Below are positions 4,099 to 4,531 of a stretch of DNA of 5,694 nucleotides, one piece after another. Position 1 is the first letter of the stretch; each line of letters opens with the position of its first letter. The position numbers and the translations under genes are program-made. Source of the DNA: a virus (Duplodnaviria; Heunggongvirae; Uroviricota; Caudoviricetes); the IMG/VR virus record IMGVR_UViG_2698536559_000015; one strand, 5' to 3'. Below the pieces are notes generated by a model. The model was given only the letters and a program-made list of their open reading frames with translations. It did not search any database and was not told where the DNA came from.

Positions 4099-4531
4099 AT
4101 GTTTGGTATTTTTGGTAAAAAAAGCCCGCAGAGCGGCAACGGAAATTAAAAAGTTTGAAAAACGCGATCTGGCACAGGTGGTGATTAACGCCGCATACCT
4201 GGTGGCCTGTGCAGATGGTGAATGTGAGGCTTCCTAGAAAGCGAAGATCGAACAGGTACTGCGTAATCAGCCTGCGCTGTACGCGTTTACGTCAGAAATT
4301 AATGCGATTAGCGCAACCATTATCGGTCAGCTGGATACGAACTTTAAAATTGGTCGTCGTGCGGCGTTACGTGAGATCGAGGATGTGAAACACGATACGC
4401 GTGAAGCGGAAGATGTGCTGGATGTGGCGGTGGCCATTGCGGAGGCAGACGGCGAAATTGAGCCGGAAGAGCGCAAGGTGCTGGAAGAGATTGCCGGTGT
4501 TCTGGATCTTCGTCTGGAGAATCACCTGTGA
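4099..4531 (+). pseudogene. TerB-like (tellurite-resistance TerB family) prophage gene disrupted by a frameshift in an A7 tract and an in-frame TAG
   Basis: ATG 4099 with SD AAGGA 8 nt upstream opens MFGIFGKK in frame 1, which stops at TAA 4147-4149. Frame 2 carries the rest of the protein (...KKFEKRDLAQVVINAAYLVACADGECEAS, TAG at 4235-4237, then KAKIEQVLRNQ...VLDVAVAIAEADGEIEPEERKVLEEIAGVLDLRLENHL, stop TGA 4529-4531). The two ADG-containing helices look TerB-like. Removing one A from the run at 4117-4123 restores a single frame. Confidence 0.65.

Follow-up and report, generated by a model that had tools for sequence, protein, structure and literature searches.

The window, that is, the whole stretch of 5,694 nucleotides that was analysed, corresponds exactly to positions 474-6167 of locus L088 (assembly GCA_052859705.1, contig DBKJRJ010000039.1) and is the late-regulatory region of a lambdoid prophage. 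Its genes are arranged in the order DUF968 gene, rusA, Q, three minus-strand open reading frames (ORFs), tRNAs, tciA, tciB, a match to the small RNA STnc100, and a DUF1737 ORF, and the same succession of Q, tRNAs, and tciAB is present in loci L002 and L083-L092. In Stx phages, the slot that follows Q and the tRNA cluster is occupied by the Shiga-toxin genes. The features of the window on which the description of tciA relies are as follows:

1434-1805: Q antiterminator gene (Pfam Phage_antitermQ, E=5e-52)
3686-3926: three tRNA-like genes with the anticodons CAT, TTT, and TCT
3942-3966, plus strand: terminator-like hairpin with a T-run, between tRNA-Arg and tciA (consensus scan only)
4086-4090, plus strand: Shine-Dalgarno (SD) sequence AAGGA, serving the ancestral tciA ATG (read directly)
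4099-4149, plus strand: ancestral start ATG (4099-4101) and its 16-codon dead-end frame, MFGIFGKKSPQSGNGN followed by a stop (translation)
4103-4105, plus strand: in-frame TTG chosen as the start by RefSeq/PGAP in A7 alleles, MVFLVKKARRA... (CDS coordinates mapped to the window)
4117-4123, plus strand: A7 homopolymer that puts the ATG out of the body frame, by comparison a derived +1 A on an ancestral A6 (direct reading, allele comparison)
4235-4237, plus strand: premature amber codon (GAG to TAG) at Glu46, in the first acidic ADG...E motif (alignment)
4238-4531, plus strand: untranslated TerB remainder of 97 sense codons and TGA, including the second ADG motif AEADGEIEPEE
4528-4695, plus strand: tciB, encoding a DUF3927 protein of 55 aa, intact (Pfam DUF3927, E=1.2e-16; phrog_1470 'TciB-like', E=2e-29)

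The sequence-only reading of this DNA had proposed that the SD sequence and the ATG open one frame, while the TerB-like body of the gene lies in another. Direct reading bears out this layout, the labels 'frame 1' and 'frame 2' being only relative, with the ATG in the window phase of 4099 and the body in that of 4100/4103. The ATG frame, which encodes MFGIFGKKSPQSGNGN, terminates at the TAA 4147-4149 after 16 codons. The body frame, one base ahead and in phase with 4103, reads ...VKKARRAATEIKKFEKRDLAQVVINAAYLVACADGECEAS and then meets the TAG at 4235-4237, before which it encodes ...KKARRAATEIKKFEKRDLAQVVINAAYLVACADGECEAS; this stop is followed by 97 further sense codons and the TGA at 4529-4531. 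If one A is deleted from the run, the ATG comes into frame with the body (MFGIFGKKARRAATEIKK...), as had been predicted, although the computed product has 143 aa and not about 144 aa. The repaired protein contains two repeated acidic A-D-G-x5-E motifs, ACADGECEAS[E] at residues 36-46 and AEADGEIEPEE at residues 114-124, and the TAG does interrupt the first of them, within A-D-G-E-C-E-A-S-[E]. The window copy of tciA additionally carries the substitution G136D (GGT to GAT, A at 4506). With stops at 4147-4149 in the ATG frame and at 4235-4237 in the body frame, the window contains no uninterrupted TerB-domain ORF, and the gene is therefore classified as a TerB-family pseudogene and not as a functional member of the family.

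The GTG start codon of tciB at 4528 overlaps the TGA of tciA at 4529-4531 (GTGA) and is preceded by GGAG at 4515-4518. An identical TciB protein is encoded in 104 indexed blocks of the sequence collection, and tciB is intact in 54 of the 73 scorable stretches that carry the TAG in tciA. The hairpin at 3942-3966 forms the upstream boundary of the tciAB unit, and this region is conserved in O157 LSU61 and L239. The Rfam scan yielded nothing inside 4099-4531, its only matches being the tRNAs and the downstream STnc100, and PADLOC returned no anti-phage defence match for TciA or TciB.

Several observations concern the surroundings of tciAB. The window is a mosaic, in which one set of E. coli genomes accounts for positions 1-3838, with matches at 93-98%, and prophages of EHEC type for the tciAB region (3990-4720), at 99%. 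No complete E. coli genome covers at least 80% of the window, and the best matches span 1-3838 only. The rusA gene (1070-1447, plus strand) contains an in-frame TGA at 1124-1126 where the full-length RusA has Trp (NTYWRRRG), because of which the ORF finder gives only an 87-aa C-terminal piece (1184-1447). Outside this codon, rusA has 87% identity with residues 2-123 of a 123-aa RusA; the gene is a second nonsense pseudogene of this prophage. Three minus-strand ORFs (1841-3389) separate Q from the tRNA cluster, a place in which one would look for the late promoter region, and they may constitute a module of defence cargo: the 293-aa ORF at 2508-3389 has matches in phrog_3243 and, among the candidate defence families of PADLOC, in PDC-S42 (E=4e-27), and the 143-aa and 87-aa ORFs are without matches. 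The middle tRNA (3763-3838, plus strand) is assigned as Lys(TTT) by ARAGORN and is missed by the Rfam tRNA model even at E<=1. Compared with the argN-like tRNA-Arg(TCG) of O157 prophages it has a one-base deletion in the D-arm and many substitutions, including the anticodon; the same sequence is annotated as tRNA-Lys by PGAP in other genomes, and it may be a diverged or degenerate tRNA. A suppressor tRNA in this phage cluster was considered as well and rejected, the anticodons being CAT, TTT, and TCT, with none of CTA (CUA) type in the window. Directly 3' of tciB, the STnc100 match (4700-4886, plus strand) scores 114 bits against a gathering score of 47, and a terminator-like hairpin with a T-run (4911-4929) lies 3' of it. 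The stand-alone 56-aa DUF1737 ORF (5025-5195, plus strand; phrog_2036) corresponds to a domain that in EHEC prophages (L089, L091) forms, at the same position, the N-terminus of a 645-aa SASA esterase of NanS-p type. It may be a remnant of such a gene or represent a separate short family (phrog_2036).

Family identity and ancestral form of tciA

The repaired translation of tciA matches the Pfam TerB family (PF05099) with a score of 38.6 bits (cut-off 24.4; E=1.5e-9), the match spanning residues 31-138 and profile positions 7-109 of 118. It is matched end to end by PHROG 632 ('tellurite resistance'; 1-143/143, E=1.7e-67) and, over residues 15-135, by the Klebsiella TerB structure (PDB 2JXU, E=3.5e-7), and it is 95.8% identical to TciA of phage JLK-2012, 50% to TerB of P7, and 39.9% to TciA of P1. 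In an alignment of 24 family sequences, residues D39, D117, G118, and E124 do not vary, and the conservation of E46 is at least 90%. The TerB-like identity proposed from the letters alone is thus upheld by PF05099, PHROG 632, 2JXU, and phage TciA alike, and these comparisons indicate that the resemblance of the repaired ORF to TerB is not a matter of chance. The full-length match, the overlapping tciB, and the cargo position of the pair place the gene in the phage tciA-tciB module (PHROG 632 and PHROG 1470).

The tciA-tciB genes of phage JLK-2012 and the 'TciA/TerB-like protein' of phage PPyecE_EH1910 are 94-96% identical to the repaired ORF along its whole length of 143 residues. In the lambdoid phages, the tciA-tciB pairs have the same stop/start overlap and the same place after Q and the tRNAs as in the window, but their tciA copies are uninterrupted, whereas the window copy adds A7, TAG, and G136D. 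TciA of P1 and TerB of P7 are full-length homologues too, and in these phages a small tciB likewise comes after tciA, with phage tRNA genes close by. P1 and P7 differ in being phage-plasmids with intact genes, and P1 has a third gene, tciC. The name tciA refers to a function predicted from terB homology, and the tellurite or colicin function of the P1-type gene is only predicted (PMC6799933, PMC9603915). We found no paper on TerB in the Q/tRNA context of prophages, and in the literature searched 'tciA' appears only in P1-type annotations with predicted functions. The TerB of Klebsiella pneumoniae (terZABCDE operon, PDB 2JXU) contains the same PF05099 domain as the tciA copy, and both proteins have two helical repeats with an acidic A-D-G...E motif in each. 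Their sequence similarity is low, however, the window contains no terZ, terA, terC, terD, or terE nearby, and the copy studied here is a cargo gene of a phage late operon, and a pseudogene.

Intact homologues of TciA have 143 aa and keep the N-terminus MFG[IFLM]F.KK.RRA across the family. A protein-level scan of the GTDB species representatives detected only nine homologues in other genera, all of them intact. In these nine other enterobacterial species, which represent Pantoea, Pseudescherichia, Franconibacter, Buttiauxella, and others, an AAAGGA(A) box at equal spacing and an ATG in frame with the body are present in every case (9/9), and six of the nine have an A6 run, reading GGTAAAAAAGC. 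Because the SD sequence and the ATG are in frame in all nine species and the run is A6 in six of them, the comparison identifies A7 as a derived +1 insertion. Glu (GAG) is the family state at the position of the TAG, being at least 90% conserved there, and by the same kind of comparison the TAG is a derived G-to-T nonsense change from GAG. Neither the TAG-type nor the GAG-type 33-mer occurs in the GTDB species representatives, which are hence uninformative on the spread of these types beyond E. coli.

Distribution, annotation, and history of the tciA alleles

Of 5426 complete E. coli genomes, 840 contain the tciA region, and the median number of copies in a genome is six. The exact TAG 57-mer occurs in 529 complete E. 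coli records and the exact A7 63-mer in 554, and approximately 529 of the 840 complete genomes with the gene carry at least one TAG copy; clonal lineages, O157:H7 and other EHEC, dominate these counts, which do not represent hundreds of independent events. Genomes usually keep intact tciA copies alongside the lesion-bearing ones. In the cultured-phage collection, all one-piece matches to tciA (124/124) are uninterrupted, unlike the frequently broken copies of resident prophages. The TAG 33-mer was found in 83 IMG/VR stretches. All four combinations of A-run and codon exist: the 96 IMG/VR alleles with the GGT-type N-terminus include 43 of A6/GAG, 2 of A6/TAG, 16 of A7/GAG, and 31 of A7/TAG type, as well as 2 with A5 (A-run totals: A5 2, A6 45, A7 48, one A7 stretch lacking a scorable codon). 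An identical 461-nt tciA allele is present in L083, L087, and L092, the upstream backbones of which are only about 83% identical to that of the window, and A7 together with TAG occurs in the finished genomes of O157:H7 LSU61 and of strain 2014C-3011. Since A7 and TAG are found without change in many independent complete genomes and on prophage backbones that differ from one another, they are, as judged from the sequences, genuine inherited alleles in wide circulation among E. coli prophages.

In RefSeq, the copies with A7 and TAG are marked as pseudogenes with an 'internal stop', and the frameshift is unflagged. For instance, the genes annotated as 'tellurite resistance TerB family protein, internal stop' in LSU61 (E3165_RS10090) and 2014C-3011 (C7A05_RS14825) have the same A7 and the same TAG, and their nucleotide identity to the window is 99.3-99.6%, with two or three differences (I/T 4350, D/G 4506), while the prophage backbone of the window differs from theirs upstream of about 3840. 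RefSeq reports the internal stop only because the CDS is begun at the TTG 4103; PGAP opens it there, in the frame of the body and four bases downstream of where the ancestral ORF begins, and the CDS of H1 and H2 corresponds to window positions 4103-4531. The 142-aa NCBI proteins P0005, P0008, P0010, and P0012 begin with MVFLVKK, i.e., they derive from A7 alleles, and the 142-aa 'MVFLVKK...' TerB proteins of RefSeq are probably mis-started frameshift alleles. The 48-aa phrog_3920 corresponds to the C-terminal fragment ORF 4385-4531 of TAG alleles, and the 97-aa 'partial' cluster P0092, with 462 members, starts exactly past the stop and likewise represents a fragment of TAG alleles. Both phrog_3920 and the 142-aa TerB set are probably artefacts of pseudogene alleles. 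The TTG-started A7 proteins of MVFLVKKARRA type comprise P0005, P0008, P0010, P0012, P0013, and P0050; in P0010 and P0012 the position of the TAG is occupied, on an A7 background, by Trp (TGG), and these two may be TAG-to-TGG reversions. The pseudogene as such is already annotated and ordinary, and the modest additions of our analysis are the frameshift masked in the start calls and the recombining TAG tract of single origin. That an automated choice of the TTG start masks the A7 frameshift is relevant mainly to annotation hygiene.

In a haplotype table of 34 unique alleles, the TAG always lies inside a window-like local tract of roughly 4199-4250. In L011, L040, and L079, window-like SNPs flank the TAG though the remainder of the gene belongs to other haplotype groups. 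One shared local haplotype thus sits on several backgrounds, which indicates, at the level of sequence comparison, that the TAG tract had a single origin and was moved between prophages by recombination, and did not arise by recurrent mutation. The 83 IMG/VR stretches with the TAG comprise 30 with A7, 4 with an in-frame N-terminus, 46 in which the 5' end is replaced, and 3 cut by contig ends; the replaced 5' end (L091 type, around 2667-2731 in L091) reaches approximately window position 4150. Further, independent lesions of tciA include an A5 run beyond which, after about 50 nt, the gene gives way to unrelated AT-rich DNA, and paired compensating frameshifts, located between two A runs or mid-gene (loci L091, L195, and L221 and proteins P0033, P0041, and P0104 represent these other breakages).

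Intact tciA alleles are under strong purifying selection (pN/pS 0.06 over 325 pairs). The variants private to lesion-bearing alleles are, apart from the stop, A13V, I70M, G136D, and H142Y, that is, four nonsynonymous and no synonymous changes, as compared with 13 synonymous and 5 nonsynonymous low-frequency variants in the control set of intact alleles (Fisher p=0.017), a test that involves only four private substitutions and alleles that are recombinant and not independent. G136D alters a Gly that is at least 90% conserved in the family and is found only in A7 alleles. Because these include A7/GAG alleles, the sequences hint, in small numbers, that A7 by itself already relaxes the constraint on the gene.

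Fate of the gene and alternative readings

Taken together, positions 4099-4531 are in all likelihood a tciA gene that has become a decaying pseudogene; tciA is an accessory ('moron') gene of E. coli lambdoid prophages for a TerB-family protein of 143 aa. The extra A (A6 to A7) shifts the conserved SD/ATG start out of the body frame, and ribosomes that initiate at the ATG would end after 16 codons. Those that initiate at the weak in-frame TTG 4103, or that have slipped on the A run, would stop at the TAG 4235 after about 45 codons, and their products would lack the conserved Glu of the motif and approximately two thirds of the TerB domain. As both frames end early, no TerB-domain protein would be expected to be made. 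The ATG would presumably outcompete the overlapping TTG for the shared SD, and transcription of the unit is likely to depend on Q-mediated read-through past the 3942-3966 hairpin. The tciB gene is intact and has its own SD, and its translation may drop when it is not coupled to that of tciA.

An error of sequencing or assembly, with A6 and a sense codon as the true sequence and an intact gene, is extremely improbable. Homopolymer indels are a common class of error and the source is a contig of a draft third-party assembly, but the identical A7 and TAG are found in four separate assemblies, in finished genomes of unrelated strains, and in the 529 and 554 complete-genome records, the source contig is present in three samples, and a substitution giving TAG would be atypical as a systematic error. 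Of the three origins that had been considered for the homopolymer (artefact, slip-strand variant, and genuine decay), this recurrence and the exclusively nonsynonymous character of the private changes favour a genuine inherited allele. How many of the lesions are inactivating is a separate question. The description of the gene as inactivated twice is firm for the TAG and less firm for A7, since annotation pipelines can use the in-frame TTG 4103 to report A7-only alleles as intact proteins of 142 aa. If A7 alleles were functional from this TTG, with a product of 142 aa, only the TAG would be a true lesion and the gene would have been inactivated once. PGAP uses the TTG and flags solely the 'internal stop', 142-aa A7 proteins are present in NCBI (the partial cluster P0050 has 847 members), 16 of the 47 scorable A7 stretches of IMG/VR are A7/GAG alleles with an uninterrupted body that are annotated as intact, and the distance of 12 nt between the SD and the TTG is a possible spacing. 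Nevertheless, different genera share the SD/ATG and the MFG.F N-terminus, A6 being the common state, and the strong ATG four bases upstream, which shares the SD, would take most initiations into the dead end. Moreover, three of the four private nonsynonymous changes (A13V, I70M, and G136D) occur in A7 alleles, A7/GAG included, and the TAG is present in 31 of the 47 scorable A7 alleles as compared with 2 of the 45 A6 alleles. We therefore consider a single inactivation unlikely, though A7 by itself may lower expression without abolishing it.

Programmed recoding or phase variation, in which +1 slippage or an on/off switch at the A run and readthrough of the TAG would provide low-level TciA, is very improbable. 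A +1 slip of tRNA-Lys on A-AAA-AAA, or the loss of one A from the mRNA, would recreate the ancestral MFGIFGKKARRA... exactly, and the run length is polymorphic in the population (A5, A6, A7). The runs known to slip efficiently have about nine or more As, however, and this one has seven. The codon past the run is AGC, neither a stop nor a rare codon, and the preceding 10 nt contain no SD-like sequence. The nine other species and most E. coli alleles are in frame, and the family as a whole has either A6 or an interrupted AAAAAGAAAA run, the shifted arrangement not being conserved; lesion-bearing alleles show relaxed constraint, and other alleles have been destroyed by deletions. Predicted RNA structure 3' of the A run (4124-4200) and of the TAG (4238-4320) was no better than that of shuffled sequences (z = 0.03 and -0.70, respectively), and altogether we found no sign of recoding in tciA. 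A different objection concerns not the loss itself but its cause, as the TAG tract could have spread because the loss of tciA is advantageous in lysogens, e.g., if TciA is costly or interferes with co-resident prophages, and not by neutral hitch-hiking. At least four backgrounds (A7, A6-GGT, AAAAAGAAAA type, and replaced 5' end) share the same tract of roughly 50 bp, which is carried by about 10% of complete E. coli genomes, and several independent kinds of inactivation exist. Should this be true, tciA would be a case of a horizontally propagated, selected gene inactivation rather than of neutral decay. Yet lambdoid prophages that share a cell recombine frequently whatever the selection, the genomes with a median of six copies usually retain intact ones, the sampling is dominated by clonal EHEC lineages, and the one-piece copies of cultured phages are uninterrupted throughout. 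Positive selection for the loss thus appears improbable to us.

The patterns of loss suggest instead that tciA is dispensable to the lysogen and decays neutrally alongside the nonsense-mutated rusA. P1-type tciA is also non-essential and often lost (PMC10695390, PMC9603915, PMC6799933): CRISPRi showed tciABC of P1 to be non-essential (PMC10695390), and about half of the P1 subgroup-1 phage-plasmids have lost the operon (PMC9603915). The presence of two nonsense pseudogenes within 5.7 kb indicates a prophage that is degrading, and the natural A6/GAG, A7/GAG, A6/TAG, and A7/TAG alleles constitute a ready-made allelic series for studies of TciA and TciB.
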